The notes beneath the pieces are model-generated. The model did no database searches. It was given only the letters and a program-made list of their open reading frames with translations, and had not been told where the DNA came from. Of a DNA stretch of 64,000 bases, positions 3,688 through 59,919 are shown piece by piece. Origin of the DNA: an archaeon. GTDB lineage: Archaea; Nanobdellota; Nanobdellia; Woesearchaeales; UBA9642. The stretch lies in contig JAZDHK010000016.1 in assembly GCA_043806035.1 (NCBI GenBank), positions 2,963 through 66,962 on the forward strand. The letters are read 5' to 3'. The stretch's first letter is position 1. Each line of letters begins with the position of its first letter. Both the position numbers and the translations under genes were made by a program.

Positions 3688-4831
3688 CATCATCTAAAGT
3701 GTAGTCTGTCTCGTTTGCCGTTGCATTCACCGTAACATAAGTTACGTTCGTCAAGAGGAGAATCTCTTGCGTTTGATTGTTTTGGGCATAGTCAGAAAGT
3801 GTCTTGAAGTAGTAGAGCTTGCTGCACAATTCTGCAGTCGTTGCGTTCGTGAACAAGTTACAGACGGCATAGTTACCTTGGTTCATGAACTGCAACAGGC
3901 AGGAGTCCCTGTCCTCAGCATCAGTTATTGCAGAGCACACATACGGATTGTTGGTCATTCTTGCCTCATTGATGATGCAGCTGGACGTTGTACACGCTGC
4001 AGGGATGACGGGATTTTCATCAATGATGATATCATAATACTCATCAGGAAGACTACTGGGTAAGGGTGTGCTTGAGCCGTTACTTGCGTTCGTTGCGTTT
4101 TGCACGACAGGAGAAGGACGAGAGGGTGTGTTGCTGATGATAGTGATGGAAAAGCTTGCCGTTGCCGTCTTGTCCTCATATGCTGCTTCGGAAAGCACAG
4201 TATACTTGCCTGCCGGCACCCATTTAGGCAAGGTGAGCTCTACGCTACGCCTTACAGAGGTATCGACTGCTATGGTCTCTTTTGCCTCATCCAATACCAC
4301 AGCAGTGCTGTCTACTAGTTTGTGCGTCAAGGTAACGTCAAACCTGCCCTTTCCCAAATTCACCAGGTCTGCGGAAAAACGCACAGTATCTCCTGGAAGG
4401 AGTGTACTTTGCTTGTTGCTTAAGGAATAATCCAGAAGCCCTTGTTTTGTAAAGAGGTGTTGCACGGCAAAAAATCCCCCGCCGATGAACAGGCCGATGA
4501 TGAACAGCGCAAAAATGACTTTGACTATGCTGCCCGTCGCAATATGATGAACGTGCACACTTGTTCCAAAAGCAGCGTCAACGTCTGCAGAAGTATAGCC
4601 TTGCTGGAGCAGCCACTGCCTCACCTGCAAGGGCGCGTAGCCTCTTCTGAGCATGTCCTGGACGTATGAGACAAGTGGTGAAACTGCAGGACTGCTGATC
4701 TGCTGAGAACTTTGCTGAAAGGCAGAAGCTATATCTCTTTCCGCATATCCTGCCCGCTTCAAAGCGAGAATGATTTGTTCTTTAGCATATCCTGCATTGA
4801 GCTGCTGCCGAACGTAATCCTGTAAGCCCAC
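3677..4831 (-). CDS. single-pass membrane protein with N-terminal tandem GY-x3-QI helical repeats and extracellular Ig-like/Thr-Ser-rich region
   Basis: N-terminus contains two ~34-aa repeats (YVRQQLNAGYAKEQIILALKRAGYAERDIASAF / YVQDMLRRGYAPLQVRQWLLQQGYTSADVDAAF), then TM helix VIFALFIIGLFIGGGFFAV, then an S/T/N-rich extracellular tail. Confidence 0.55.
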   Translation of the reverse strand: MGLQDYVRQQLNAGYAKEQIILALKRAGYAERDIASAFQQSSQQISSPAVSPLVSYVQDMLRRGYAPLQVRQWLLQQGYTSADVDAAFGTSVHVHHIATGSIVKVIFALFIIGLFIGGGFFAVQHLFTKQGLLDYSLSNKQSTLLPGDTVRFSADLVNLGKGRFDVTLTHKLVDSTAVVLDEAKETIAVDTSVRRSVELTLPKWVPAGKYTVLSEAAYEDKTATASFSITIISNTPSRPSPVVQNATNASNGSSTPLPSSLPDEYYDIIIDENPVIPAACTTSSCIINEARMTNNPYVCSAITDAEDRDSCLLQFMNQGNYAVCNLFTNATTAELCSKLYYFKTLSDYAQNNQTQEILLLTNVTYVTVNATANETDYTLDDVIG

Positions 4832-4893
4832 GCCACACCCCTTTTTGTCTTCATCGCATTCTTTGTTTTAATGTTTTTCCATAAAGTTTATTA

Positions 4894-7800
4894 ATGTTGC
4901 ATTTGCCAAACGAAATCATGGCAGATGCGAAGAAAGTCACGGCTGAGGACCTTGCCAAGAAGCAGCGGGACATCAGTATCGCAGAGTTCTTCGAGAAGAA
5001 CAGGCACTTGCTCGGCTTTGACAATCTGAGAAAGGCATTGCTCACCACTATCAAAGAAGCGGTGGATAATTCCCTTGATGCCTGTGAGGAAGCAAGGATT
5101 CTCCCAGAAATCAACGTTGAAGTCACGGACATGGGCAATAATCGCTTCAAGGTCACTGTGGAGGATAATGGACCGGGAATCGTCAAAGAACAAATCCCGA
5201 AGATATTCGCCAAGCTCTTGTATGGCAGCAAATTCCATAGCCTGAAACAATCACTTACTGGTGATCAGCCCGTTCTTATAAAAGAAAAGGGCAGGATTCG
5301 AATCGTAAAGATAGGAGAGCTTATTGACAAATACATTCAAGGAGAGGGCGTGTACGATTGCTTTGAAAAAGACATATTCTCCTTATCATTCGATGATGCG
5401 TACAAGTATTCTTTTAGAAAAGTGAGCCATCTGATAAAGCACGGGCGCGAGAACGAGATAGTACACATTAAAACAAGCTACGGCAAGAGCATAAAGGTGA
5501 CTGGCTGCCACAGTATTTTTGGCATCGATCGGAAAACATTGACGGTGAAGGAAATCAGGGCACGCGATCTGAAAAAAGGAGATTTAATACTGGCTCCGAA
5601 GAGAGTAAGTTTTGAAGAAAACGAATGCCAAAGCGAAATCAATGTACTTGATTACATCGACGTTTATGAGGCTAAAAAGCAAGGTTGGTACCTCTATACT
5701 GACAAGGACGAAATAAAAAAAATATTTGCAACTGCAAAAATCGTCCATCAAAAAAAAGACAATGACAAATCAAGAAAACACTACCTTCTCACTAAAAATG
5801 GGAACACAGTTGAAGTGCTTGATGACTCCTATAAACAATATGTGACAAAGGGATTCCTGCCTGTGTGGCTGGCAAAATTTCTCAGAATGAATGAAGGAGC
5901 AATAAGAACATATTTTCACGGAAAAGAATATGCTATTCCAGTAAAATTGCAGGTAACGAATGGGCTTGCAAAGCTCCTTGGCTTATTTGTCGCAGAAGGG
6001 CACGTTGACAGCAGGCAGATTGGCTTCACTTTTTCAAGAACAGAGCGAGACCTGGTACGACTCGTTTGCGAACAGGCGTTCCTGCTCGGCTCAAGCCACA
6101 CTGTAGAAGAGCGACCTGAAAAGAATTGCGTTCGGGTCAAACTGTTCGGAGGCTTGCTGAGCCATCTTTTCCGGACGTGGTGCGGTAAGGGGGCTCACAA
6201 CAAGAAGGTCCCCGAGTTTATATTCACAAGTCCCACAACAATACGTCAAGACTTCATCGATTATCTTTATATTGGAGACGGTCATAACACAAAAAATAGA
6301 AACCAACTCATGCTGACGACAGTTTCAGAAGAGCTTGCAAACCAAGTTGTCTATCTGTGGCTCTTACAGGGTGTTGTTTCGAGCATAACCCGCAGGATAA
6401 GCAAAGGACTAGGAAAGACGCCAAGCAAAATGTGTGTGGTGAGCGTGTATGGGCTGGACATAAACGTTTCAAACTACTTTTCAACAAATAATACGAATCT
6501 AAGGAGAAAAAGAAGACTAACCATGAGTGCAACTAGTCTTGCTAATAAGCTAGGCGCACACATAACTCTTGAAGAAGCGGGCTATCTTGAAAAATTACAG
6601 CTGCTGGACTGGAATAAAGACTATTCTTATGCGGAAATGACTGAGTTTTTTGGCACAGATAAGCCAGGTTATAAACTCAGATACTTGCTCGATAGCAATC
6701 ATCTTACACAAAACTCCTCAAACGGCTATTGTGTGACCTTGCAGCTAGTACAAAGATGTAAAGCATTCGAGCAAATAAAAAAACTTGCCATGTCAGATTT
6801 CTTGTTTTTGGATGTAAAGGAAATTGAAGTAATGCACGATGGATACGAGCACGTTTATGATTTGTCTGTCCCTGCGTGCGAGAATTTCGTAGCAGGTTTT
6901 GGAGGCATAGCTGCCCACAATTCCCGTGGTCAGCAGGGCATTGGAATCTCTGCTGCTGTGATGTATGCACAGTTGACAACAGGCAGACCAGCAAAGATTA
7001 CGAGCAGGACCTCACCTAGCAAGCCTGCCCATTATTACGAATTGCACATCAACAAGCAGACGAACAGTCCTGACATTTTGAAAGATGAGGAACGGGAGTG
7101 GAAGAAAGAGCACGGTACAAAAGTAGAGCTTGATTTGGAAGCGAATTACTTGAAAGGATCACAGAGCGTCGATGAGTATCTCAAGCAGACGGCCATCATC
7201 AACAGCCACATCACCCTCATCTACCTGAATCCAAAAGGAGAGCAGAAGGTCTATGCTCGAGCAACAACCCAGCTTCCTCCTGAACCTAAAGAAGTGAAGC
7301 CTCACCCGCACGGCCTAGAATTTGGTATGCTGCAGAACTTGCTTAAGGGCACGGAATCACGGACGTTGCAGAGCTTCCTCACAAACGACCTCTCAAGAGT
7401 GGGAAGCCAGACGGCAAAGGACATCTGCGATAACGCCCTACTCGACCCGAAGATGAAGCCAGGAAAGCTCATGCATGCCGATGTTGAAAAACTCATCACT
7501 GCCATCAAAAATGCAAAAATAATGGCCCCTTCCGCAGACAGCATCTCACCCATAGGGACGGAGAGCATAGAAAAAGGCATCAGGAAGGAAATCAATGCTG
7601 AATTTTATTGCAGCGTCAGCAGGCCTCCCTCAGTGTATAGGGGAAATCCATTCCAGATAGAAGTTGCAATAGCGTATGGCGGCGAGCAGCCAGGCGACCA
7701 GACAGCGAACGTCATTCGATTCGCCAACCGCGTCCCACTACTCTATCAGCAAGGCGCATGTGCGATAAGCAAGAGCATCATGACCACGAACTGGAAAGCA

Positions 7801-8259
7801 TATGGCCTGAACCAGAGCAACAACCAACTGCCCGTGGGTCCCCTGACCATTCTCGTCCATATCGCAAGCGTCTGGGTTCCCTTCACGTCAGAGAGCAAGG
7901 AAGCCATAGCACACTACCCTGAAATCATAAAAGAAATTAAGCTTGCCCTACAAGAGGCGGGTAGAAAATTGCAGACGTACGTTCATAAGAAGAAAAGAGT
8001 TGGTGTTGAGCTGCAGAAAAGAAGCTACATAGAGAAGTACATTCCCGCGGTTGCCGAAAGCATCATCACCTTGGCTGAACTCAAGAAGGAAGAGAAAGGA
8101 AAGATTGAAGAACATCTCAAGGACATCCTGGAACGGCACAGAGGGGAGCTTGAGGACATGAGCTTTGATGAGGACAAGAATGCAGAGTACAAAGAGGAAT
8201 TGGCAGCAAGGCGTACAGCTGATCTGGACACGGATGATGAGCAGAAGGAGGATGACTGA
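4894..8259 (+). CDS. top6B: DNA topoisomerase VI subunit B, interrupted in-frame by a 557-aa intein (extein 564 aa)
   Basis: N-extein has DNGPGI (GHKL G1 box) and FAKLLYGSKFH. After the insertion the sequence resumes SRGQQGIGISAAV (ATP-lid G2 box). The remainder matches the Top6B transducer domain and ends in an acidic C-terminal tail. Confidence 0.9.
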   Translation: MLHLPNEIMADAKKVTAEDLAKKQRDISIAEFFEKNRHLLGFDNLRKALLTTIKEAVDNSLDACEEARILPEINVEVTDMGNNRFKVTVEDNGPGIVKEQIPKIFAKLLYGSKFHSLKQSLTGDQPVLIKEKGRIRIVKIGELIDKYIQGEGVYDCFEKDIFSLSFDDAYKYSFRKVSHLIKHGRENEIVHIKTSYGKSIKVTGCHSIFGIDRKTLTVKEIRARDLKKGDLILAPKRVSFEENECQSEINVLDYIDVYEAKKQGWYLYTDKDEIKKIFATAKIVHQKKDNDKSRKHYLLTKNGNTVEVLDDSYKQYVTKGFLPVWLAKFLRMNEGAIRTYFHGKEYAIPVKLQVTNGLAKLLGLFVAEGHVDSRQIGFTFSRTERDLVRLVCEQAFLLGSSHTVEERPEKNCVRVKLFGGLLSHLFRTWCGKGAHNKKVPEFIFTSPTTIRQDFIDYLYIGDGHNTKNRNQLMLTTVSEELANQVVYLWLLQGVVSSITRRISKGLGKTPSKMCVVSVYGLDINVSNYFSTNNTNLRRKRRLTMSATSLANKLGAHITLEEAGYLEKLQLLDWNKDYSYAEMTEFFGTDKPGYKLRYLLDSNHLTQNSSNGYCVTLQLVQRCKAFEQIKKLAMSDFLFLDVKEIEVMHDGYEHVYDLSVPACENFVAGFGGIAAHNSRGQQGIGISAAVMYAQLTTGRPAKITSRTSPSKPAHYYELHINKQTNSPDILKDEEREWKKEHGTKVELDLEANYLKGSQSVDEYLKQTAIINSHITLIYLNPKGEQKVYARATTQLPPEPKEVKPHPHGLEFGMLQNLLKGTESRTLQSFLTNDLSRVGSQTAKDICDNALLDPKMKPGKLMHADVEKLITAIKNAKIMAPSADSISPIGTESIEKGIRKEINAEFYCSVSRPPSVYRGNPFQIEVAIAYGGEQPGDQTANVIRFANRVPLLYQQGACAISKSIMTTNWKAYGLNQSNNQLPVGPLTILVHIASVWVPFTSESKEAIAHYPEIIKEIKLALQEAGRKLQTYVHKKKRVGVELQKRSYIEKYIPAVAESIITLAELKKEEKGKIEEHLKDILERHRGELEDMSFDEDKNAEYKEELAARRTADLDTDDEQKEDD
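5251..6921 (+). mobile_element. intein with LAGLIDADG homing-endonuclease domain inside top6B
   Basis: Junctions KQ|SLTGDQPVLI ... FVAGFGGIAAHN|SRGQQ. Splicing blocks: A (SLTGDQPV), B (VTGCHSIFGI), F/G (VYDLSVPACENFVAGFGGIAAHN followed by +1 Ser). Two LAGLIDADG motifs (LAKLLGLFVAEGHVD, FIDYLYIGDGHNT). The central part is conspicuously A-rich compared with the host gene. Confidence 0.85.
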
Positions 8260-9341
8260 TGAATCCTGTCGTTGAGAAGATGATGAAGCTGGCAAAGGAC
8301 ATGCATCAGGACATTCTCAAGGATAACCAGCCGAAGATAACCTCTCCACTGCGAAGCTTGAACAATGTGACGTATGATGACAAGAAAGGTTATTTTGAGT
8401 TGCTCGGCAAGGTCAAGACAAGAACGCTCACGGCAAGCAGTATGAAGACGTTTGCGCAGACGCTCAAGATGATGGAGCTCAGCAAGCAGCTCATCAACAC
8501 AAAAGACATTGCAGCAAAGAGGGACGTGTACTATCAGAGCAAGAATTGGGGCGATGCCAAATTTACTGAGCAGCCTGAGTCTGACGCGATTATGGATGAT
8601 GTCGAAGCCATGCTTACTGTGAACAGGGAACAGCTTGGCTTTGTCCCCGATGAGGACGGTTCGTCCGTTGCTGGAGAACTCATTATTGTCGACAAAGATC
8701 CGGAAACGGGCAACCCAGTCGAGATAGACTGCACAAAGCTAGGCACGGGTGGCTATAACATCCCGAATAGTGTCGAGCATTTCAAGTTCAAAACGAAGGC
8801 AAAGTTTGTATTGGCTATAGAGACGTCGGGTATGTTTCAGCGCTTGAACTACCACAAGTATTGGAGGAAGCAGAACTGCATCCTTGTTTCACTTAAAGGC
8901 GTGCCGAGCAGGGCTACACGGCGGTTCTTGAGGAAGCTCAGTGATGAGAATGCCCTGCCCATCTACGTGTTCACGGACGGCGATCCATACGGATACTTGA
9001 ACATCTACAGAACGCTGAAAGTTGGTTCGGGTAATGCCGCACACATTAACAAGTTCTTCTGCGTGCCCAACGCAAAATATTTAGGAGTCACTCCTCAGGA
9101 CATCATCGATTACAAGTTGCCGACACACGCGCTCAAGGATATTGACATCAAACGAGTGAAGGATGGCATGAAGAACGATCCATTCGTCATGCACTATAAA
9201 GAATGGCAGAAAGCGCTCAAGCAGCTCGTGGACATGAAGAAGAGAGCTGAGCAGCAGGCTCTTGCAGCATGGGGCCTCAATTTCGTGATGTCAGACTACC
9301 TGCCACAAAAGCTCAAAAACCCGAAGAGCTGGCTGCCGTGA
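8259..9341 (+). CDS. top6A: DNA topoisomerase VI subunit A (Spo11 family)
   Basis: 360 aa; start codon overlaps the top6B stop (ATGA); Toprim/winged-helix regions typical of Top6A (e.g. YVFTDGDPYGY). Confidence 0.9.
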   Translation: MNPVVEKMMKLAKDMHQDILKDNQPKITSPLRSLNNVTYDDKKGYFELLGKVKTRTLTASSMKTFAQTLKMMELSKQLINTKDIAAKRDVYYQSKNWGDAKFTEQPESDAIMDDVEAMLTVNREQLGFVPDEDGSSVAGELIIVDKDPETGNPVEIDCTKLGTGGYNIPNSVEHFKFKTKAKFVLAIETSGMFQRLNYHKYWRKQNCILVSLKGVPSRATRRFLRKLSDENALPIYVFTDGDPYGYLNIYRTLKVGSGNAAHINKFFCVPNAKYLGVTPQDIIDYKLPTHALKDIDIKRVKDGMKNDPFVMHYKEWQKALKQLVDMKKRAEQQALAAWGLNFVMSDYLPQKLKNPKSWLP

Positions 9342-26578: not shown

Positions 26579-28453
26579 TCAGACGATCGATACAGGCACG
26601 GTCTCACTTTCGGGCGTGTTGTAGTATGCATCATCAGGAATGACCAGAATTTCATACGTGCCTAAGGGAACATCTGATATGATGAAGAATTCTTTGTCTG
26701 GCGTTTTGTATAGGTTTCCAGGTGTGACGATGTCTATTCCTGCAAAGCAGACTTGCTGGCAAACCACTTGGGAAGAGGCTGCAGGAAGCGCCTCGTTTTC
26801 CTGCAGTATTGACTGCACGAATTCTTGGCCTGCAAGGAACAACGTGATATTGTAGCTGTACACGTGTTCTTCTGCGGAGGGTGTGGGCCAGGTGACAATG
26901 ACATTTCCACTTTCCGGCGTTAGTGGCTGGTATGTTACGCTGACGTCAAGGGCTGCGGGAGGCACAGTATCAGTCAGCGTTATCCCTATTCGTATGGGGA
27001 CTGCTTCTCTGCTCCTTGTCGTTCTGCCGTTGCTTGTTCTGAGCACTTCTGTCTGGCTTCCGTTCGTGAAGCTCAAGCAGAGCGGGTAGTGTTGTTTTTG
27101 TGGCCTGCACAGTCGTTGATTGGTGTACTGAGAGAAGGTAATCCCTTGTTCGCTCCTCACCAAGACGGCATTGTCTAGTGTAGAATCCGGGTCTTCTGCA
27201 CTATAGGAAAGCGTATTCCCAAAGGAGAGATGCTGTACGCTTGGCATGCCTGCTTGCCCCTCGACTTTTGTGTGGAAGGGGATATTGAATGCATACTCTC
27301 CTCCTTGTGCAGTCATGGTTGCACTGCCTTCAAGGGTTATTTCTCCTTGTCCTGAAAGTGGGCAGTAGCAGTTGGTGTCATTGATGTAGTTGCAGTCGTA
27401 GAGTTGTTCGATGAATGTGAAGAAAGGGTCATCGCTGCAGTGCTTGGAAAGCTCGTACGTTGCATTGTCTGTCGTGACATGTTCTGTAAAGCACTGCTCG
27501 AGGTTGTCGTTACAGTCGTGGACGATCTCTGTTGAGAATTCTTTGAGATGATTGTATGCTGCAAAGTCGTACTGTACTGTCCTGTCAATAAATGGCAAGT
27601 AGGAGTAACTGCCGAGGTATTCACCTGCAACTTTTTGCGTTTTTCCTGGTTTCTCTCCAAGAAGAGGTGTGCCTCCAGGAATGGCTGGAGGGAATGGGTC
27701 ATTTTTGGGAAACACCCACACTTTGGGGTTTTTGCCAGACACCCAATCCATGCCACTTTGGAATGCAGGATTTGATTCTTTGCCAATACCAACATAGACG
27801 TCGATGTGAGACGTGCAGTACAGCGCTCCTCCTGTGTCTTCGGCAACATACCATCCCGTCCAAGGATTGTCAGGCTCGTCAAATTCCAAATACACTTTCG
27901 AACCATAAGGAATGTTGCAGTTCAGGCAACGATACGGGCTATCAGCGTTATAATTTTTTGCTGTACAGGTTTCTGGGCCGAACGGATTTACGGCGATTGT
28001 TCTTCCTACGATGGGTGGTTCCGAGGAATGATATGCCTTTCCGAGAGTGGGTGCTGCTGTGGAGTCTGCTTTTGATGGCTTTATCCTGATGGGAGATTTT
28101 CCATCACCCGTGTATGCCTCGCCGTTTGTCCCTATTCCTCCCCCTTGGCAGAGCACTTCCTCATAAAAGCCGACAAGTTGGGGATTGTGTCTGTTCCTGT
28201 CAGCGAAGACACAGGCGGCTTGGCTGCTGGTTATGTCGCAGCCAACACACCAAGCATCATATTCGTCCTCCAATGGAGTGTTGTAGATGGTGGTGTATGC
28301 CTGTCCTGATCCTGGATAGTTAGGGGGTCCAGTTGGGTGTGGGTCTCTGATGATTTCGCCTGTTATTTGCTGTGTTGCTTGTTGGTGGGGCCAGAGCAAG
28401 ACAACTGCTATTGCAAAAAGAGCAAGTACTGCTACAATGATTGTTGTTTTCAT
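26579..28453 (-). CDS. large secreted Cys-containing protein (hypothetical), last gene of the surface operon; start taken at MKTTIIVAVLALFAIAVVLLW
   Basis: Signal/anchor helix followed by about 600 aa with many Cys/Asn/Thr; ATGA-type overlap with the upstream M15 peptidase gene. Confidence 0.5.
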   Translation of the reverse strand: MKTTIIVAVLALFAIAVVLLWPHQQATQQITGEIIRDPHPTGPPNYPGSGQAYTTIYNTPLEDEYDAWCVGCDITSSQAACVFADRNRHNPQLVGFYEEVLCQGGGIGTNGEAYTGDGKSPIRIKPSKADSTAAPTLGKAYHSSEPPIVGRTIAVNPFGPETCTAKNYNADSPYRCLNCNIPYGSKVYLEFDEPDNPWTGWYVAEDTGGALYCTSHIDVYVGIGKESNPAFQSGMDWVSGKNPKVWVFPKNDPFPPAIPGGTPLLGEKPGKTQKVAGEYLGSYSYLPFIDRTVQYDFAAYNHLKEFSTEIVHDCNDNLEQCFTEHVTTDNATYELSKHCSDDPFFTFIEQLYDCNYINDTNCYCPLSGQGEITLEGSATMTAQGGEYAFNIPFHTKVEGQAGMPSVQHLSFGNTLSYSAEDPDSTLDNAVLVRSEQGITFSQYTNQRLCRPQKQHYPLCLSFTNGSQTEVLRTSNGRTTRSREAVPIRIGITLTDTVPPAALDVSVTYQPLTPESGNVIVTWPTPSAEEHVYSYNITLFLAGQEFVQSILQENEALPAASSQVVCQQVCFAGIDIVTPGNLYKTPDKEFFIISDVPLGTYEILVIPDDAYYNTPESETVPVSIV

Positions 28454-29601
28454 CCTGCACCGCACCTTCCTATTCTTCCTTGCTCGCACAGGTTTTGTTT
28501 TCTGGCAGAGTCCCACATTCTCGTTCCGTACTCGAAATGCCACCATTCCTCACCGTATCTCACCCAGCCAATGTCACACATGAAATCCTCGAGTTGGTTC
28601 TGGAGCGCGCACTGCTCATCAGTAAAGGAATACTTTGCGTACGTGTAGCTTGCCCCTCTAGGTCCTAGATTCACTTCGTGATCAGATGCATCATACAAGG
28701 CAATGTCTATCGCACCCCCAGTCATGTGCGGGGCTGTAATGGGCCTGTCAGGTGTGCCGCAGCGTGGCTGGGCAACCCCACTGCATCTGCCAGTGAATGG
28801 CTCGTTGGGACAGTAGCTTCTCCAGATGCTTTTCTGCTTTTCAAGGCTCCTAAAGCCGCTTACGATAACTAACTCGTATGTCTGCCCATTAGGAAGCCCT
28901 TGTTCTTTGAGCAGTTGGGCAGTTTCCTGGATTTTTTTCTCAACTTCAGGGAGGACTCTGCAGCCGTCTGCTCCCGCAGTGCAGCGCACGTTCTCTATGG
29001 GGACGAGTTCGTTGTCAGTAGGACAGTAGATGGCTATTGCTTCCGTTAGTGAGGATGAAATGTATCGGAGGCTTTGTTCGAGTTTTCCTGCGCCGAGAGG
29101 GATAATGAGTGGTTGTATTGCTGTTGCAAAGATACGATATTGTGCTGGCAGTTCTGAGATCTTCTGCAAAGTAAAAGTAATGAAGGGATCGCTGAGTGAA
29201 ATGAGTCTTTTGTGATTGGAAAGGAACGGATCTAGTGCGTTGTTGAAGAACTCTGCCAGGCTTGTGGGTATATCTGGTGTGCAGTCGTTCCCTTGCCCGT
29301 TCCAGAGGTTGTACATGTACTCGCCACAGGGGCTGCCACCACCATCCTCGCCAGGCATGATGCCTCCATTGTCTGCCATTTCCGAAATTGCATAGTCGAG
29401 CGCATGTGGTGTTGCAATATCCAGATACGTTTGCGCTTCGCTGCCTTGCAGGTATGCGTTGATGAGTGCTGCTTGCTTTGTACCTATTGCTTTGGCTGCA
29501 TTTTGCGGGCTGTCGTACTTGCTGCTGAGCAAGGCCCAGGCAGTGAAGAGTGCTATGATTACCATGATGACGACGGCAGGGAGGAAAAAGTGGGCTTTCA
29601 T
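28450..29601 (-). CDS. M15-family (VanY-like) zinc D-Ala-D-Ala carboxypeptidase, membrane-anchored; start taken at MKAHFFLPAVVIMVIIALF
   Basis: C-terminal motifs SGFRS, HMTGGAIDIAL (H-x6-D zinc ligands) and EWWHFEY characteristic of Peptidase_M15 / VanY. Confidence 0.6.
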   Translation of the reverse strand: MKAHFFLPAVVIMVIIALFTAWALLSSKYDSPQNAAKAIGTKQAALINAYLQGSEAQTYLDIATPHALDYAISEMADNGGIMPGEDGGGSPCGEYMYNLWNGQGNDCTPDIPTSLAEFFNNALDPFLSNHKRLISLSDPFITFTLQKISELPAQYRIFATAIQPLIIPLGAGKLEQSLRYISSSLTEAIAIYCPTDNELVPIENVRCTAGADGCRVLPEVEKKIQETAQLLKEQGLPNGQTYELVIVSGFRSLEKQKSIWRSYCPNEPFTGRCSGVAQPRCGTPDRPITAPHMTGGAIDIALYDASDHEVNLGPRGASYTYAKYSFTDEQCALQNQLEDFMCDIGWVRYGEEWWHFEYGTRMWDSARKQNLCEQGRIGRCGAG

Positions 29602-29602
29602 G

Positions 29603-30121
29603 TCATACCTTGCTGGGCAGTTGTTGTATGTTCTTGTACCCTTCAGCAGCAACGTTACCTGGCTGTATGATTCGTAATCTTAACGTTATTGCATTCCCAT
29701 CAGCTAAAGGGAGTTGCACGTGGACGCTCTCTTCGTCTGAAAGCGAGATAGTGCAGCAGTACTTGTCGTTGTTCACGCCAGGCCACTGTTCGATGGACAG
29801 CCGCCATTCTGTTGATGGATAATGACTGGAGAGTCTTCCTGTGATTATACCTTTGAGGTCGTTTGCACTCTGCTGATCTTGCGTGAGCACTGCTCTGCCG
29901 ATGAGTTCGCCGAGAGTAGTGAGTCCTTCCCGCACAAGCACTTGTTCCTTGAGAAGGCTTATGAGATAGAATTGCGCTTCATTACTTGTGGTTATCTGCG
30001 CTATTGCACGATGCTGTGCTGCCGCGCCCGCAAGCTTGAAAATGACGTAGAATGCGATGACAACTATGACGAAGATGAAAATGGCCAGGAGATCTGCGAT
30101 AAAGCTTAGTCCGCGTTTCAT
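29603..30121 (-). CDS. pilin-like protein with class III signal peptide (MKRG|LS...)
   Basis: MKRGLSFIADLLAIFIFVIVVIAFYVIF: short basic n-region, Gly, then a hydrophobic helix; 172 aa. Confidence 0.55.
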   Translation of the reverse strand: MKRGLSFIADLLAIFIFVIVVIAFYVIFKLAGAAAQHRAIAQITTSNEAQFYLISLLKEQVLVREGLTTLGELIGRAVLTQDQQSANDLKGIITGRLSSHYPSTEWRLSIEQWPGVNNDKYCCTISLSDEESVHVQLPLADGNAITLRLRIIQPGNVAAEGYKNIQQLPSKV

Positions 30122-30125
30122 GTTT

Positions 30126-30671
30126 TCAGCTGTTCGGGGTGATGATGTGGACGAGCAGGGTGCCTCGTTCCTCGCCCATTATCGTTGAAAAAGTAACGGG
30201 GACGTCTCTGATGAGGATGCTTGCAGAGCCTTTGCCCGTGATGCCTGTCTCTACATAAGGACAGAGTTTCGTGTAGAGTGCTTTGTTGAGGTATGTGGTC
30301 TTGGCAAATGTGCCATTACGTTCTGTACAGGGAGCTCTGTCGTGGTCGTCAGAACTGGCGAAGTCATTGCGTATGAAGGTTATTTTTGCTGCGATGTGTT
30401 CTTGTGCCGTGTAGTGTATGCCAGAAAGCGTGCTGCTCGAGATGTCATCCCAGGAGATGAGGCCTATGTTTGGCCGGTTCAGTCCTTCGTGAGATTCCCA
30501 CAAATCAGGTGAGTAGTATATTCTGTAGAACAGGACGTCTCGGGAGACTTCTTGCACGTCAAGTCTGGTGAGGATGTAGAGTTCGATGAGCAGGATGACT
30601 GCAGTGAATGCGAAGATGAGGACCAATACTCGTATAACGTGCTCAAAATAGTATTTGACCTGACCTTTCAT
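30126..30671 (-). CDS. pilin-like protein with class III signal peptide (MKG|Q...)
   Basis: MKGQVKYYFEHVIRVLVLIFAFTAVILLIELYIL: KGQ motif with Gln+1 as in Methanococcus EppA-dependent pilins. Confidence 0.6.
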   Translation of the reverse strand: MKGQVKYYFEHVIRVLVLIFAFTAVILLIELYILTRLDVQEVSRDVLFYRIYYSPDLWESHEGLNRPNIGLISWDDISSSTLSGIHYTAQEHIAAKITFIRNDFASSDDHDRAPCTERNGTFAKTTYLNKALYTKLCPYVETGITGKGSASILIRDVPVTFSTIMGEERGTLLVHIITPNS

Positions 30672-31519
30672 GTGTAGTACTCCATGAGCGTTTCCTTGAT
30701 TGCCGTGGTGAGTTGTTCCTGTCCTGTATTGTCAAGCGGTGGCGTGAGGATGACGATGGCTATTTCTGCATTGATGTCTTGCACTCCTCTGACGGGGAGT
30801 TCTTGCATGCTGAGTATGCTCGTCACATCAAGATCGTATCTTTTTTTGAGGATGCAGGTGAATTTTTGCATGCCGAACACATTTGGCCCATCGAGATAAT
30901 AGAGTTTAGTGGCGGTGTAGGAGCTGTTCTGGAAGAGTGCTATCCTGACATCTGCCGTATCCCAGGCAACACCAAGATGCTCAAGAGGGAGGTCGAAGCG
31001 GAATTGGGCAAGCAGGTGGCTTTGCATGCTTTCGTCAGCATCGAACGCTATTCTTTTTTCGCTAATGTTTGCGCTTGTGGAGAAATCAATACATCCGGAG
31101 AGGGAAAGTTGCTGGCTGACTTCTATGCGGTTGCCATTCTTGTTCAAGTAGATGATGTACGGCACGAATGTCTCAGGGAGCAAATAGGTGAGTCTGTTGT
31201 CCGTGGCGTATGGGAAGTTTGCGGGTGAGTTCTTTTTCTTGTCTGACTGCTCGTACACGCTCACCCGGTCCGTGCCGAATTCTATGAAGATGCCTTGCTT
31301 GAGATCCACTTGCGGAATCTGCTGGTAGGTGAACGCGACATCACCATCTGCCACAGGCAGGAGGTCCATGATGAGCGCTGTATCTCGCGCAAAATAATTC
31401 CTCCAATAGGTTGTGTCATTGACCTCGCCCCTGACATAAATCATAAGAGCAACGGCGACAACGCCGAGCATGACGAGCTCGAAGATGAAATACCACGGCA
31501 GACTCATCTGACCTTTCAC
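30668..31519 (-). CDS. pilin-like protein with class III signal peptide (MKG|Q...)
   Basis: MKGQMSLPWYFIFELVMLGVVAVALMIYV; 283 aa; overlaps the downstream pilin-like gene by 4 nt. Confidence 0.6.
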   Translation of the reverse strand: MKGQMSLPWYFIFELVMLGVVAVALMIYVRGEVNDTTYWRNYFARDTALIMDLLPVADGDVAFTYQQIPQVDLKQGIFIEFGTDRVSVYEQSDKKKNSPANFPYATDNRLTYLLPETFVPYIIYLNKNGNRIEVSQQLSLSGCIDFSTSANISEKRIAFDADESMQSHLLAQFRFDLPLEHLGVAWDTADVRIALFQNSSYTATKLYYLDGPNVFGMQKFTCILKKRYDLDVTSILSMQELPVRGVQDINAEIAIVILTPPLDNTGQEQLTTAIKETLMEYYT

Positions 31520-31592: not shown

Positions 31593-31931
31593 TCATCGCA
31601 GAATGATTGATGTGAAGTACTTTTCTTGGAATTCAGTCATTGCACGTATTTGATCGTCCGTGTATGTTTTTCCTTCGGGAACGATGACGAGTTTGTCCTC
31701 GACATCATCGAGTCTGTGGATGACCGCTATGCACTCGCCAGTAAATTCTTGGACGGGTTCGAAGACACCGAGAACGTAGGCATCGAGATCTTCTCCGTCA
31801 GGCGCGGGAACACCCGGCAGATATCCGTAATTGTAAACGTAATAGATGTCATGAATCCTCGGGTGCCTGCTTCCCATTGGCCGGTCAATTTTCACATGTA
31901 CGACTTTTCCGAGAAATTCTTTTGATTCCAT
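31593..31931 (-). CDS. miniature inorganic-pyrophosphatase-like protein (112 aa)
   Basis: Matches the family I PPase core: YVYNYGYLPGVPAPDGEDLDAYVLG (cf. E. coli [23 protein letters not shown]), KLVIVPEG (cf. KLVAVP), EFQEKYF (cf. HFFEHYK); lacks about 60 aa of the canonical enzyme. Confidence 0.55.
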   Translation of the reverse strand: MESKEFLGKVVHVKIDRPMGSRHPRIHDIYYVYNYGYLPGVPAPDGEDLDAYVLGVFEPVQEFTGECIAVIHRLDDVEDKLVIVPEGKTYTDDQIRAMTEFQEKYFTSIILR

Positions 31932-31932
31932 G

Positions 31933-32940
31933 TTACATCAGAAACATCACGGCATACCCCACAAGGCAGCCTATGGTGAGAAAGGGCATGGCGGGATAGA
32001 ACTTGTCTTTCTTTGCAAAATAGAAAAGCAGACCGAGTGCAAGTGCTGCTCCTAACACAACGGGGGTGGTGTGCAGGAATGCGGCTGATTTTGTCATGCC
32101 TGTGCTGAAGAGTTGGGTGAGTGCAGTTCCTGCGAACAAAAGAGGGAATGCAATGTCCCCGCCGCCGAGAATGGCGTGCTTGTGCTTTCCTGGCAAGAGG
32201 GGTGTTGCATGGTGCGTGCTTGCATGTACTGCGTGCTTGCTTGCGTGTTCTTTTTGCTTGTAGGGAAAGTAGAGTCCTGCAAAAAGGTTGCTTTTCGTCT
32301 GGAATTGGGCCATTTTGACCATGTGTTTGCTCTTCCACACTGCATATGCGTCATACAGTGATACGGCGAGCAGAAGTAGGAGCGCCCATAGCACGTTGAA
32401 AAGGGGAACAAAGAGCAACGCTATGCCTCCGTACATGAATATTTCTGTGAGGTTGTGGATGATGAGATTGGGTTTCCAGAGCTTCCATGCTGCAAGAGCT
32501 GCTGCAATGAGCAATGCAATGAAAGCGGGGAAGAAAACGCCCAGCGTTACGGTTATTGCAAACCACACGGCGAGGAAGAACCAGAACTTCCATATGCCTA
32601 TCTTGTTGAATTTCATGAGTAAGAGCAGTAGAATTGTCCCTATGCCAACGCCGATGACGACGAGCAGGAAGCTCTGGCTACCCTCCGTCTTTGGTCGTTC
32701 TCCCAATGCTGTGTCTCCGTATTGGACTGTTATAGTGCCGTTCACCGTCTGTACGTTCGCCTCTTTCGTTATGAGAAATAAGCCAAAAAACTGTGCGGCG
32801 AGAAATGTTGCCAATAAAGCGAAAGTAACGAGCCAAGAGTGCTTCATACAGAGATAGTGTTCGTTTGATTTATAAGCATTTGTATCTGCAGCATGCTGCG
32901 CAAGACATTCGTTCGCGTCATCGTTGCAATGACACTTCAA
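31933..32940 (-). CDS. presenilin / signal-peptide-peptidase-like intramembrane aspartyl protease (A22-type, GxGD)
   Basis: Nine predicted TM helices; YD in TM6 (LAVSLYDAYAV), hydrophilic loop, GxGD in TM7 (ILGGGDIAFP), PAL-like PAM in TM9. Confidence 0.6.
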   Translation of the reverse strand: MKCHCNDDANECLAQHAADTNAYKSNEHYLCMKHSWLVTFALLATFLAAQFFGLFLITKEANVQTVNGTITVQYGDTALGERPKTEGSQSFLLVVIGVGIGTILLLLLMKFNKIGIWKFWFFLAVWFAITVTLGVFFPAFIALLIAAALAAWKLWKPNLIIHNLTEIFMYGGIALLFVPLFNVLWALLLLLAVSLYDAYAVWKSKHMVKMAQFQTKSNLFAGLYFPYKQKEHASKHAVHASTHHATPLLPGKHKHAILGGGDIAFPLLFAGTALTQLFSTGMTKSAAFLHTTPVVLGAALALGLLFYFAKKDKFYPAMPFLTIGCLVGYAVMFLM

Positions 32941-35032
32941 TTATTCCCAAAGTGTCTTCTTTGTAATCTATTTGGTATTTGTCTGTCCCTGACAGTCCGT
33001 ACGTTCGTTTATAGATGGGCGTGTCTGTTATGTGAAGAAGTGGCAGGACGTTCTTGAGTGAGGCGGAAATGCCGAGTTCTCCGAAAGAGAATGGTTTTGT
33101 GTAGCCTATTCCCGCTCCCAGCTCGAAGCTGGGAGGCAACCGTTTTCCGTTTCTCATTTCATTTTCGAGAAAGCTCACCTCACCTATGCCGGGAATGGTT
33201 ACCCGTCCTACCCGTTTATCCGTGTAGGGAAATCCATCCCTAAAACTGAAGTTGGTGAAGACGCGCCAGGGCTTGACGTGATAATCTAGGCTCAGTCCGC
33301 ATTCAAAACGGCGATCTTTGTCAATGAAAGAGGGGATTGTTCCTTTTTCTCCTAGTCTCGTCGTTCCCAAGAGGGCATAGCTGCCTATCGTCCACTTTTT
33401 CATAGTTAGGTCGTATTGGAGCAACGACCATGTGCTGTAGCCGTACAACGATGTGCCTTTGCTCTCGACCGCATCCATGCGCGCACCAGCGCATTCCACA
33501 CGAAGAGAACCAGTGTACACGCGTCTAGAATATGCTGTGCTCGCTCCCGTTGTTGTCGTGAAGACTGCCGTTTTGTTCAGGTCAGCATCCTCTCCAGCAA
33601 AGGTTGATCCGCCTATCGAGTAGACGTTGTGGCGGAGCATGCGCAGTTCAAGAATGTATGTTGGTGTCATTCTTGTCCATGTCGCTTCAAGTGCAGGTTT
33701 AATGTCCCTGCTTTTTTTGTGCACGAGTGTTTGGTCTATCCTGCCCCCTAGCGTCAGTGTTCCTGGGCCAAGAGAAACTGCCGTCTCCCCTCCCGCTGCA
33801 AGAGTAGTTATGGACATGGTGTCTCTGGTTTGATTTGCGTCAGCTGCCGTCAGATCTTTTCGTACGGCATTTCCTTCTTGGACAGAACCATCAATGACGA
33901 GGAGTGTTTGTTTGCTATGCCTCCAGATGAACTTTCCGAACTGTTGCTTGAGTTTTGCCGTGCTTTCTCTCCGAAAACTGACTTGTGATGTGCCTACTGA
34001 TTCTTCGCCGTCCGTTGTGTAGTTAAGGTAACTGTCGAGCGAGGAAAAGGACATAGACAGTGTGTCGTTGGAAAAGAAGGTTGTTGCTGTTGCGTGCAGG
34101 TTTGTTTTTCCTTCTTTAGCGTCTAGGACAGCGTCTAGGTATTTGTCCCTGCTGCCATAGACGTGCGTTCTGCTTTTGTCTTGCTCAAAACCAAGTTCGA
34201 ACTTTCCTCGTCTTGACTCGCCGAAGAGGTAGTGGAGCAGATTTTCTGATGCGGGGAGCACCGTGTTGCGCGGCAGGGAATACATCGTGCCTGCAATCCA
34301 TTGGTACGTTGTCTGTCCGTAGTCTGTCTCTGCTGCAATGCTGCCCCTCTTTCCTGATACAAGAGGGTATGCTACGCGTATGCTCGATGCAGGAATGCCC
34401 GTCTTTACCGAGTATGCTATGCGTTCTGGTTGGTCGAGCGCCGTGAAAACACAATAATCAACGCCATATGCGGGATAGGCAATGGATCCGTGCCGCACTG
34501 TTTTTTGTGCAGAAAGCGGTTGTATCCCTGTCCAGCGCCCTGCGAGAGGATGCTGTTGGTGCACGCCTATCCCTCCGGGCGTGTATTCAAGAACATCTAT
34601 GCCTCTGATGGTGACGTCAGCGTCGAGCGTTGGCTTATTGTCTATGACTCTATTCTCTAGTCTGAGCTGGCCTTGTTCGTTGAAGCTTCCCGAAAGAGAC
34701 AGGGGTATGTGGGGCTGCTCGGCAACGATGAAGACTTCTTGAGCGAACAGCGGAATGTCAAGAAGCACAATGCTATCCAAGCTGGCTATTGGGACGTTTT
34801 GGAGTTGCTTGCCGATGCATCTGATCGTGACGCTGTCGATGGGCTGTGCAGTGTTAAGCACGAACACGCCTTGCTCGTTTGTGCTCACGAACCCAGAATG
34901 TGATGGGTCGAGGACGGTTGCTCCAACAACAGGGCGTCCTTCCTTGTCGACGACCTTTCCCGTATACACGTCCGCTATTGTCGTCGAGACGAGTAGCGAG
35001 GACGCGAGCAGCAATGATAATAATTTCCCCAT
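32918..35032 (-). CDS. large secreted beta-rich protein with N-terminal carboxypeptidase-regulatory-like (CarboxypepD_reg) domain; first gene of the surface operon
   Basis: Signal peptide MGKLLSLLLASSLLVSTTIA; VYTGKVVDKEGRPVVGATVLDPSHSGFVSTNEQGVFVLN matches the CarboxypepD_reg fold; remainder has alternating beta-strand-like pattern; start codon shares CATG with divergent nucS. Confidence 0.55.
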   Translation of the reverse strand: MGKLLSLLLASSLLVSTTIADVYTGKVVDKEGRPVVGATVLDPSHSGFVSTNEQGVFVLNTAQPIDSVTIRCIGKQLQNVPIASLDSIVLLDIPLFAQEVFIVAEQPHIPLSLSGSFNEQGQLRLENRVIDNKPTLDADVTIRGIDVLEYTPGGIGVHQQHPLAGRWTGIQPLSAQKTVRHGSIAYPAYGVDYCVFTALDQPERIAYSVKTGIPASSIRVAYPLVSGKRGSIAAETDYGQTTYQWIAGTMYSLPRNTVLPASENLLHYLFGESRRGKFELGFEQDKSRTHVYGSRDKYLDAVLDAKEGKTNLHATATTFFSNDTLSMSFSSLDSYLNYTTDGEESVGTSQVSFRRESTAKLKQQFGKFIWRHSKQTLLVIDGSVQEGNAVRKDLTAADANQTRDTMSITTLAAGGETAVSLGPGTLTLGGRIDQTLVHKKSRDIKPALEATWTRMTPTYILELRMLRHNVYSIGGSTFAGEDADLNKTAVFTTTTGASTAYSRRVYTGSLRVECAGARMDAVESKGTSLYGYSTWSLLQYDLTMKKWTIGSYALLGTTRLGEKGTIPSFIDKDRRFECGLSLDYHVKPWRVFTNFSFRDGFPYTDKRVGRVTIPGIGEVSFLENEMRNGKRLPPSFELGAGIGYTKPFSFGELGISASLKNVLPLLHITDTPIYKRTYGLSGTDKYQIDYKEDTLGIIEVSLQR

Positions 35033-35846
35033 GCTGTTGTCTTTACGGGAGAGGTATAAAAACATTTCCAAAAACATTAAATACGTCATCATCGTCTTTT
35101 GCTTCGTGCAAAAGCATACAACCTTCCTCGAAGAGTGCAAGTTGGCTCTGCAAAACGATGCCACCCTCGTTCTGTGGGTGCGCTGTGAAATAATGTATAG
35201 TGGCCGTGCCGAAAGCCATTTGGCATCCGGAGATAGGCTCATCATCATCAAGAGCGACAAGACCATTCTCGTCCATCAACCGAAAGGGAGCTCGCCCATC
35301 AATTACATGAAGGCAGGATGCGAACACACACTTGAACCCGTCGAGGGGACGGATGCATTCATCCTGCACAGTAGACAGGGGAAGGAATACTTGGATGTGT
35401 TCATCGAGCAGGTGTATGACCTTTCCACGAAAAAGCTTGAAGATCATGCGACACTACAGTTGGTGGGGAGTGAACGGGACATGAGTGACATGCTGTATCA
35501 CAATCCTGAGCTTATCGAGAAAGGATTCACGCCATTGAGTAGAGAAGAGCACACCAAGTATGGATTCATTGACGTCTTTGGCTATGACAAAAAAGGCATT
35601 CTCGTCGTGGTCGAATGCAAAAGGTATATGGGGGATTTGGCAGCAGTCACCCAATTACGCAGATATGTTGAGAAGATAAAAGCATCGAAAGGGCTTGCTA
35701 CTGTACGCGGCATCCTTGCCTGTCCCGCAATAACACCGAATGCAAAAAAGATGCTCGAGGATTGGAAGTTCAGCTACGTGCACGTTCACCCCCCTAAATA
35801 TTTGGAGAAGCACCGCAAGAGTCAGATGAAACTCGGGGAATACTGA
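35031..35846 (+). CDS. nucS: endonuclease NucS / EndoMS
   Basis: N-terminal domain ATLVLWVRCEIMYSGRAESHLASGDRLIIIKSDKTILVHQP; C-terminal RecB-like nuclease motif GFIDVFGYDKKGILVVVECKR. Confidence 0.85.
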   Translation: MLLSLRERYKNISKNIKYVIIVFCFVQKHTTFLEECKLALQNDATLVLWVRCEIMYSGRAESHLASGDRLIIIKSDKTILVHQPKGSSPINYMKAGCEHTLEPVEGTDAFILHSRQGKEYLDVFIEQVYDLSTKKLEDHATLQLVGSERDMSDMLYHNPELIEKGFTPLSREEHTKYGFIDVFGYDKKGILVVVECKRYMGDLAAVTQLRRYVEKIKASKGLATVRGILACPAITPNAKKMLEDWKFSYVHVHPPKYLEKHRKSQMKLGEY

Positions 35847-44708: not shown

Positions 44709-44867
44709 ATGCCTTTCCTCGTCAGATGTCCTGCCTGCAAAAACACGATGCTCGTCCAGCCGAGACTGCAGCCAGGTGAGGAACTTGCGCCAAAACGGAA
44801 GGTGTGCGTCTACTGCGGAAAGAGCTTTTCTGTGAGAAAACAAGCGCTAAAATACCTCATTCGTTGA
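44709..44867 (+). CDS. small C4 zinc-ribbon protein (52 aa)
   Basis: [14 protein letters not shown]...CVYCGKSF; start chosen at the Met directly before the first CxxC. Confidence 0.4.
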
Positions 44868-44947
44868 GAGGAACAGCGTCAGAAAAAAAGCAAAACACTT
44901 ATAAACCGGGTTGGTTTTTCAGCGTCGATAAAAACAGGAAGACCCCC

Positions 44948-47392
44948 ATGACGAACACGCCATCACAAGAACCATCTGTCCCGCACGAATCACGCATTCT
45001 CAAAGAGATTGTTGAGCAGAAAATGAAGTCTGCATACATAGATTATGCCATGTCCGTCATTGTCAACCGTGCCTTGCCCGATGTGCGTGACGGCCTAAAA
45101 CCAGTCCATCGCAGAGTATTGTATGCCATGAATGATCTAGACTTGGCACACAACAAAGCACACAAGAAGTGTGCAAGGATTGTCGGAGAAGTCTTGGGAA
45201 AGTACCACCCCCACGGTGATAGTGCCGTGTATGAGACATTGGTGCGCATGGCACAGGACTTCTCGCTGCGCTACCCTCTCGTCGATGGACAGGGAAATTT
45301 TGGTAGCATCGATGGGGATAATGCTGCTGCGATGAGATATACGGAAGCACGACTCAGCAAGATTGCAGGAGAAATGCTGCTGGACATTGACAAAGAAACC
45401 GTTGATTTCAAGGACAATTTCGATGCCACCCTGCAAGAGCCCGACGTGCTACCCTCACGCATTCCCAATCTCATCATGAACGGCAGTAATGGCATAGCAG
45501 TGGGCATGGCGACGAACATTCCTCCACACAATCTTCAGGAGATAGGGAAGGCAATCATTGCACTCATTGACAACCCTGAACTGAGCGTTGCCGAGATTAT
45601 CACACACGTGCAAGGTCCTGACTTTCCTACGGGGGGCATCGTCGCTGGCAGGAGCGGCATCGTGTCCGCCTATACGACAGGAAGAGGCATCATCCAGCTG
45701 AAAGGCGTCATGCAAGTACATGAGGTTAAGGAGAAAAAGCGCATCATCATTTCTGAAATTCCCTACCAGGTAAACAAGGCGCAACTCATTGAGGAAATTG
45801 CAGGATTAGTACGTGACAAAAAAATCACGGACATCAGTGACATGCGTGACGAAAGCAATCAAGAGGGCATACGTATCGTGCTTGAGCTGAAGCGGGATGC
45901 ACATCCCGACATCGTCATGAATGTCTTATACAAATTCTCGAGAATGCAAGTGAGTTACAGCATCAACATGCTTGCTCTTGTCGACAATGAGCCGAAGCTG
46001 CTTTCACTGAAGCACGCACTCGTACACTATATCGATCATCGAAAAATTATTGTTGTCAGGAAAGCTCAGTTTGAGCTCAAAAAGGCACAGGAACGGGCAC
46101 ATATCCTTGAAGGTTTGCAGAAGGCCTTGCAGCACATTGATGCCGTCGTTGCGCTCATCAAGAAAGCCGCAAAGGTTGAAGATGCAAAGCAGAAGCTGAT
46201 TGCAGAGTACGGATTGAGTGATGTACAGGCACAAGCCATTCTCGAAATGCGCCTGCAAAGAATCGCCCAGTTGGAACAGGAAAAAATCGTGCAGGAACAT
46301 CAGGGACTCGTGAAAACCATCAGGCAACTCCAGCACCTGCTCTCACACGATGAAGCCATACGTGATGTCATGAAACAGGACCTGGTTGAGGTGATGAAGC
46401 TGTATGGAGATGATCGGAAGACAGTTATCAGCGATGAGGATGAGTCCCTTGAGCTAGAGGAACTCATACCTGACACGATGCAGGTCATCACCCTGACGAG
46501 ATCTGGGTATATCAAAAGAACAGCGCTTGACATTTTCAAGGTGCAGCGACGAGGAGGCAAAGGAGTCATTGGTACGGACAAGAAGGATGAGGATGTTGTC
46601 GAGCACATTTTCGTGGCAAGCACCCGTGCGTCATTGCTCATCTTCACTGACAAAGGGCTGGTGCATTGGCTCAAGATCTGGAAAATCCCTGAAGGCAACA
46701 GATATGGTAAGGGCAAAGCTCTCATCAATCTCGTTGAGCTTGACAAAGAGCAGGTCACGGCAGTCATTCCCGTCAAGGAATTCACGGACAAGGAATGCTT
46801 GATCATGGCGACAAAGCGTGGTGTCGTCAAAAAAACGAACCTGAACGAATATGCAAATCCTCGACGAGGGGGTATCAAGGCCATCGCTTTCGACGAGGGT
46901 GATGTCCTCGTTAATGTCATAAAAACAAAAGGCAATGCAACACTCATCCTTGCAACAAAAAAAGGCATGGCGAGCAAGTTCAGTGAGCATGATGTACGTA
47001 GCGTTGGGAGGACTGCGCGAGGTGTGCGAGGTATACGCTTGCGTCAAGGTGATGCTGTGGTGGGTATGGTTATTGGGGAAGACACCAAAAAGTTGCTGAC
47101 CGTTACCGAGCATGGGTTCGGTAAAAAAACGCTTATCAGCGAATACCGCTGCATCAACAGAGGGGGCAGTGGCGTCATTAACATCCGTTGTGGGGAGCGA
47201 AATGGACCTGTTGCGTGCGTTCGCAGCATTACGGATACGGACGAATTGTTGTTTGTTTCTAAGAATGGCATCATGATCAGGACTTCTGCAGCAGACATTC
47301 CCACAGTAGGAAGAAATACACAGGGTGTGCGTATCATGAAACTCGATCAAGGAGACATCGTGGTAAGCGCTGCAAAAATTTATGGTGAGTAA
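44948..47392 (+). CDS. gyrA: DNA gyrase subunit A (no intein); start at [10 protein letters not shown]
   Basis: [24 protein letters not shown]; catalytic region [10 protein letters not shown]; C-terminal beta-pinwheel repeats. Confidence 0.95.
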
Positions 47393-59911: not shown

Positions 59912-59919
59912 CGTCAATA

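Follow-up and report, generated by a model that had tools for sequence, protein, structure and literature searches.

Type I inorganic pyrophosphatase (InPase) domains without the β2-β3 hairpin of the canonical enzymes were described by Iyer, Burroughs, Anand, de Souza and Aravind (2017, J Bacteriol 199:e00245-17; PMC5512222), who treated them as a monophyletic group in phage polyvalent and portal proteins. Related versions were found fused to NUDIX and GNAT domains or encoded beside them, or linked to TmrB P-loop proteins, and stand-alone "related" forms were mentioned briefly. Two candidate roles were put forward, action on a nucleotide-like substrate, which was named first, and the clearing of pyrophosphate (PPi); no experiments were given (Iyer et al., 2017). 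A literature search for assays or other biochemistry of hairpin-less members found nothing beyond that study.

The protein considered here, a product of 112 aa, is encoded in the window, that is, the whole stretch of 64 kb of DNA that was analysed, whose gene content is archaeal (RadA, RFC, Topo VI-A, NucS, RPA, TrmB). By its residues and predicted fold it belongs to the computationally recognised hairpin-less InPase clade, and it is called mini-PPase below. An identical protein carries the NCBI name 'inorganic diphosphatase [archaeon]'. The original prediction, made from the DNA alone, had proposed a miniature family I PPase-like protein of this length, and exactly that open reading frame was recovered (Table 1), with a match to PF00719. 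The ATG (31929-31931) lies 1 nt past the TAA (31933-31935) of an upstream gene for a protease of the signal-peptide-peptidase (SPP) type and is the first possible start after an in-frame stop, so that an N-terminal extension is impossible. A spacer of 73 bp separates the mini-PPase stop from the next gene.

The short length, and nothing else, would suit the idea that the gene is a piece of a full-length ppa, left by a frameshift, an assembly error or pseudogenisation, as the original prediction had itself considered. This is extremely improbable. The reading frame is bounded by the stop of the SPP gene 1 nt upstream and by its own stop, no PPase-like coding sequence occurs nearby or in any other frame of the window, homologues fall into more than 1,000 clusters of which the 120 closest are equally long, and the AlphaFold2 model is compact and confident. 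A frameshift or fragment was rejected on the clear ends of the frame, the other frames and the homologues of the same length, and mini-PPase is, as judged from these data, an intact and fairly ordinary gene, neither broken nor a regulatory relic.

Table 1. Features of the mini-PPase locus, with coordinates in the window, and residue equivalences to E. coli PPase.
Feature	Coordinates	Strand	Remarks
Mini-PPase CDS, 112 aa + TGA stop	31593..31931	(-)	Stand-alone hairpin-less type I inorganic-pyrophosphatase-fold (InPase) protein; full translation MESKEFLGKVVHVKIDRPMGSRHPRIHDIYYVYNYGYLPGVPAPDGEDLDAYVLGVFEPVQEFTGECIAVIHRLDDVEDKLVIVPEGKTYTDDQIRAMTEFQEKYFTSIILR
Residues 15-24, IDRPMGSRHP	31860..31889	(-)	End of strand 1 + short loop replacing canonical β2-β3 hairpin
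Residues 30-55, YYVYNYGYLPGVPAPDGEDLDAYVLG	31767..31844	(-)	Core PPase signature; hhalign, phmmer and hmmsearch alignments to PDB PPases
Residues 71-85, IHRLDDVEDKLVIVP	31677..31721	(-)	Second acidic cluster + lysine; hhalign
Residues 92-106, DDQIRAMTEFQEKYF	31614..31658	(-)	Helix corresponding to PPase helix A; DSSP helix 92-103
Presenilin/signal-peptide-peptidase-type GxGD protease, upstream	31933..32940	(-)	PF06550, 53.9 bits; listed TTG start uncertain
Three consecutive pilin-like genes	30668-31519, 30126-30671, 29603-30121	(-)	No Pfam match
VanY/peptidase M15 (D-Ala-D-Ala carboxypeptidase-like) protein + 3D-domain protein	26579-29652	(-)	Directly after the pilin-like genes
D16 = E. coli E20			105/105 relatives
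Y31 = E. coli Y51			hhalign
Y35 = E. coli Y55			105/105 relatives
D45 = E. coli D65			105/105 relatives
E47 = E. coli D67			Glu in 81, Asp in 21 of 105 relatives
D50 = E. coli D70			105/105 relatives
D75/D76 = E. coli D97			hhalign
E78/D79 = E. coli D102			D79 in 104/105 relatives
K80 = E. coli K104			105/105 relatives

Mini-PPase matches Pfam PF00719 and no other Pfam family (27.7 bits, E 2.7e-6, residues 27-108), above the gathering score of 23.5. Searches against PDB sequences returned family I PPases only, both with phmmer (best E 1.4e-3) and with a profile of 60 family sequences (best E 2.5e-7); all matches with E <0.01 were PPases of 167-214 residues, and no hairpin-less member was among them. 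The probability given by hhalign was 92% against E. coli PPase, and 96.8% in a global comparison with a small alignment of five canonical PPases (the E. coli enzyme and four others), the fine detail of that alignment being approximate. For the AlphaFold2 model, which was computed from the family alignment, mean pLDDT is 95.2 and pTM 0.87; read with DSSP, the model presents the PPase OB-fold barrel plus helix A. Judged from these searches, the resemblance of the residues to those of PPases is well above chance. Features of the DHH/DHHA2 (family II) enzymes, or of the ~700-aa multi-span membrane H+/Na+ PPases (PF03030), are absent from the protein. The NCBIfam equivalogs of housekeeping Ppa were missed, PRK01250 with 19.6 bits against a cut-off of 246 and PRK02230 with 16.7 against 200, in agreement with the earlier view that this is not the canonical housekeeping ppa.

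The residue equivalences in Table 1 rest on profile alignments (hhalign, E. coli numbering), and conservation was counted in 105 close relatives. In canonical PPases, the electrophilic phosphate is bound by Y55 and K104, and the leaving-group (P1) phosphate by K29, R43, Y141 and K142 (E. coli numbering). The equivalents of the metal-binding acids, of E20 and of K104 are 95-100% conserved in the relatives, and the window protein has every family-invariant residue. The same core residues recur in six full-length stand-alone bacterial copies of 40-50% identity, from C. acetobutylicum, Listeria, L. plantarum, Priestia and Phaeobacter. The core motifs quoted in the original prediction were found at residues 34-41 (NYGYLPGV), 45-55 (DGEDLDAYVLG) and 80-85 (KLVIVP). 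The C-terminal FFEHY-type element that it had also named is present as EFQEKYF at 100-106, with F101-Q102-E103 invariant in the relatives; FQEKY is a plausible counterpart of FFEHY, but the register is ambiguous and the global hhalign alignment places the element differently.

Compared with E. coli PPase, the protein is missing about 14 N-terminal leader residues, the β2-β3 hairpin that carries K29, E31 and R43, and the C-terminal helix B. These losses account for the third of a normal enzyme that had been described as lacking, and the deleted hairpin for the substrate-binding residues said to be absent from the N-terminal half. The global hhalign alignment is gapped where E. coli PPase has its K29-R43 hairpin region, sets D16 against E20 and matches P18-x-G20-S21 to the canonical EIPxGS motif; in the AlphaFold2 model, DSSP assigns a 16-residue loop at 18-33 and no hairpin. 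The leaving-group ligands and E31 are all affected, K29, E31 and R43 by deletion, Y141 by replacement mostly with Phe (87 of 105 relatives; Y105 in the window protein) and K142 by Phe (F106), the register of this helix being uncertain. The family has also gained basic residues. R73, at the place of the canonical Met95 (visible as Met in three PDB alignments), is found in 105/105 relatives and is kept in all divergent members too, and R17 (104/105) and H23 (105/105) are invariant or nearly so in the subfamily of the window protein. The H23-P24 motif is specific to this subgroup, and the subgroup of Listeria and L. plantarum does not have it.

The family is large and widely distributed. Homologues of mini-PPase formed 1,483 clusters at 90% identity; the 120 best-matching ones have 98-157 aa (mostly 111-119 aa) and are 62-73% identical to it. 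A profile search of 1.84 billion representatives gave 2,254 clusters at 50% identity with E<=1e-3, of which 1,314 had E<=1e-10 and 301 had E<=1e-30. In a genome scan, the family was found at no fewer than 586 species-level loci of bacteria and archaea, with carriers among the Chloroflexota, Clostridia, Bacilli, Mollicutes, CPR phyla, Latescibacterota, Gammaproteobacteria, Methanosarcinales and DPANN archaea. Among cultured organisms, copies occur in C. acetobutylicum (on pSOL1), on plasmids of Priestia megaterium and Phaeobacter inhibens, and in L. plantarum, S. suis and Listeria. The mini gene occurs together with a full-length family II PPase in the records of L. monocytogenes (NZ_CP030101.1) and F. 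vincentii (NZ_CP084075.1), and is thus an accessory gene in both; in these two bacterial records, it encodes an accessory enzyme beside a canonical PPase.

The nearest relatives of the window protein are bacterial (69-70% identity), other archaeal copies reach 58-65%, and the archaeal sequences do not group together, which suggests horizontal spread of an accessory gene. Recent transfer could not be read from base composition, as the gene has a G+C content of 46.6% against 47.8% for the window. An origin from phages or defence systems was likewise discarded: phage sequences gave three weak BLAST matches only (~41% identity), no match was obtained among PHROG families (E 0.047) or PADLOC models, and structural matches in BFVD, to InPase domains inside phage portal, 'mega' and polyvalent proteins, were remote.

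The partners of the family are best seen in its fusions, which are stronger evidence than enrichment among neighbours. Of 99 long representatives, 22 are fused to NUDIX, the commonest partner, at least 12 to GNAT and six to P-loop kinases of the AAA_33 type; further partners are Zeta-toxin-like kinase, glyoxalase, HIT, APH, GrpB and HAD domains. Among the immediate neighbours at 74 loci, NUDIX was again the commonest Pfam family (11/142), followed by SAM methyltransferases (9) and GNAT (5), although its local enrichment is modest, since control genes at positions +/-4/5 already include 4/142 NUDIX genes (one-sided Fisher p = 0.054 against the 11/142 at +/-1). The closest named relative, with 70% identity, lies in a tight gene row, miniPPase-MBL fold-NUDIX-tRNA_bind-HAD, which was present on four contigs. 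Near this row, a contig labelled Candidatus Parcubacteria carries an archaeal-type dehydroquinate synthase (PF01959), and given this gene the Parcubacteria label of the bin may be doubtful.

Other surroundings differ. The copy of L. monocytogenes NCTC7974 ends an LXG polymorphic-toxin locus (1870-5980) with DUF3130, an LXG toxin, small hypothetical genes and a bacteriocin immunity protein, which is a conflict-system context, unlike those with NUDIX and GNAT. On a Phaeobacter inhibens plasmid (67-8318), a mini-PPase gene lies beside radical-SAM/SPASM, GNAT, MATE efflux and dehydrogenase genes, and on an L. plantarum plasmid (3611-4312) beside radical-SAM/SPASM genes; these surroundings look like a small biosynthetic or resistance cluster. 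The InPase-NUDIX fusion of E. eligens (WP_012740636.1, 290 aa; 3992-4864 of its locus), annotated merely as 'NUDIX domain-containing protein', no longer has counterparts of D45, Y35 and K80 in its InPase part. Its InPase domain may be inactivated, and not all members of the family need therefore be active.

In the window, mini-PPase follows the SPP-type protease gene, which is intact, with YD (SLYDAYAV), GxGD (LGGGDIAFP) and PAL-like (PAMP) motifs, and precedes three pilin-like genes. In view of the 1-nt gap between the protease stop and the mini-PPase ATG, these two genes are probably co-transcribed, and the row of pilin-like genes is probably transcribed with them. The N-termini of the pilin-like proteins resemble archaeal class III (type IV pilin-like) signal peptides (MKGQ/MSLPWYF..., MKGQ/VKYYFEH... 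and MKRG/LSFIADLL...), and all three lead into a hydrophobic stretch; the GxGD protease might act on these adjacent proteins. The VanY/M15 and 3D-domain proteins encoded further on are hydrolases of the bacterial-murein type, and their presence on an archaeal contig hints at a DPANN-type way of life in which bacterial walls are attacked. The placement between an intramembrane protease, here matched to PF06550, and pilin-like genes was correctly recognised at first, but it does not serve as a clue to function, because homologues of the SPP protease, the pilin-like proteins and the murein hydrolases were found at 0/80 related loci. A functional tie of mini-PPase to any of these neighbours was set aside for this reason. 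The partners seen elsewhere in the family are missing here: no NUDIX, GNAT or kinase gene lies near the window copy, and a regular-expression search of the window found no Nudix box.

Some other genes of the window deserve mention. A bacterial-type DNA gyrase A (44804-47392, (+)) and an archaeal Topo VI A (8259-9341, (+)) are both present. An rRNA methyltransferase of the FmrO family, which is known from 16S rRNA methylases of aminoglycoside resistance, is encoded at 59722-60705 (+) (PF07091, E 1.4e-26). The listed reading frames 32918-35266 (-) and 34755-35846 (+) overlap by ~500 nt; the NucS domains of the (+) frame start only at residue 138, and the (-) frame, of 782 aa, has a signal-peptide-like Met at 79, so that the true genes probably do not overlap.

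The invariance, or near-invariance, of the metal cage, of Y35 and of K80 argues for an active metal-dependent phosphoanhydride hydrolase, and mini-PPase is probably such an enzyme. With somewhat less assurance, though still as the favoured account, it can be described as a stand-alone hairpin-less InPase, a minimal OB-fold hydrolase dependent on divalent metals, whose likeliest substrate would be PPi or a PPi-like terminal diphosphate from nucleotide-processing partners. In this proposal, the cage formed by D16, D45, E47, D50, D75/D76 and E78/D79 is kept, and a metal-activated water would attack the terminal phosphate as in canonical PPases. R73, two residues before the D97 equivalent on the same strand face, is expected from the alignment to point into the active site and may stand in for the lost leaving-group ligands, to which the basic loop residues R17, R22 and H23 may also contribute. 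PPi, the most economical substrate, could be supplied for example by NUDIX-type NTP pyrophosphohydrolases or by nucleotidyltransferases. As all four P1 ligands are absent or replaced, efficient hydrolysis of PPi is not guaranteed.

Owing to this loss of every classical leaving-group ligand, a nucleotide-like substrate stays a serious rival. In that case, mini-PPase would be an active hydrolase of a nucleotide-like or organic pyrophosphate and not of free PPi, acting for example on what NUDIX, GNAT or kinase partners produce or consume, or on a nucleotide induced by infection, and the missing hairpin would open the leaving-group site to a bulkier group. Fusion or adjacency to NUDIX, GNAT, AAA_33/Zeta-type kinases, HIT, APH and GrpB points in this direction, as does the occurrence of the domain inside phage portal and polyvalent proteins, and this role is the first of the two proposed earlier (Iyer et al., 2017; PMC5512222). 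Against it, the invariant new basic residues R73, R17 and H23 could rebuild a site for PPi, and the window holds no partner gene. NUDIX NTP pyrophosphohydrolases release PPi, so that the clearing of PPi explains the NUDIX association equally well, and the nucleotide-like substrate is on the whole somewhat unlikely. A broader scheme, slightly more probable than this but still tentative, would make mini-PPase a second-step enzyme of NUDIX/GNAT/kinase 'house-cleaning' or conflict pathways, cleaving nucleotide-derived pyrophosphate at a site built from R73 and the DRPxGSxHP loop; in a variant of it, the enzyme would be fully competent and the only PPase of CPR/DPANN cells.

A related suggestion, that mini-PPase is the sole housekeeping pyrophosphatase and suffices for a DPANN-type archaeon of reduced genome, is unlikely. 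It would agree with the frequency of the family in CPR bacteria and DPANN archaea, with the typical G+C content of the gene, and with the lack of a second family I PPase in the 64-kb window and of a family II or membrane PPase among the large ORFs checked. However, so little of a genome fits into 64 kb that the lack of a second PPase carries hardly any weight; a full-length family II enzyme coexists with the mini gene in both bacterial chromosomes checked, many copies are plasmid-borne, and the ungrouped archaeal copies with their bacterial best matches suggest an accessory gene acquired horizontally. It is very unlikely that the protein has the PPase fold but a regulatory or otherwise non-catalytic role, for instance as a binding module; such a role had been the functional proposal of the original prediction. 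About a third of the canonical enzyme, substrate ligands included, is indeed lost, and the NUDIX-fused E. eligens copy has degenerate catalytic positions. Yet the acidic ligands, K80 and Y35 vary little or not at all in close relatives, the window protein has all of the family-invariant residues, and conservation of the catalytic residues at 95-100% in 105 relatives, together with their retention in the six full-length stand-alone bacterial copies at 40-50% identity, is the signature of an enzyme; the proposal was abandoned.

The preferred reading, an active hydrolase of PPi or a PPi-like diphosphate, concerns more than 2,000 clusters (50% identity), which come from bacteria and archaea alike, include plasmid-borne copies and are uniformly auto-annotated as 'inorganic diphosphatase'. 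If 112 residues without K29, R43 and K142 hydrolyse PPi, they define the minimal catalytic core of family I PPases, and if the protein is the only PPase in CPR and DPANN cells, it would be the smallest natural pyrophosphatase. Should another substrate be preferred, thousands of database entries are wrongly annotated, and the recurrent fusions to NUDIX, GNAT and kinase domains indicate a step of nucleotide processing that has yet to be characterised. The window copy itself adds little to this, being one more stand-alone gene in a context that is not conserved.

Beside the canonical family I PPases (E. coli Ppa, S. acidocaldarius 1qez and P. aeruginosa 4xel), the window protein is ~60 residues shorter, lacks the K29/E31/R43 hairpin and helix B, and has Arg for Met95, with Phe/Tyr and Phe at the places of Y141 and K142. 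NUDIX-InPase fusions such as that of [Eubacterium] eligens (WP_012740636.1) contain the same InPase domain, but covalently joined to a NUDIX hydrolase. With the clade of Iyer et al. (2017), the window protein shares the absence of the hairpin between core strands 1 and 2 and the retention of the acidic metal-binding residues and, at the level of the family, the fusions and neighbours of NUDIX, GNAT and P-loop type, which were reproduced independently here; it differs in being free-standing on an archaeal chromosome-like contig, and not part of a phage polyvalent protein. Short 'inorganic diphosphatase' genes of bacteria, such as those of C. acetobutylicum pSOL1 (WP_010890780.1, 110 aa), L. monocytogenes (WP_014600483.1) and the plasmids of Priestia megaterium and Phaeobacter inhibens, differ from it in often being plasmid-borne or in variable regions, beside GNAT, peptidase E, radical-SAM genes or an LXG toxin locus, but agree with it in domain, length and conserved residues, at 40-50% identity.
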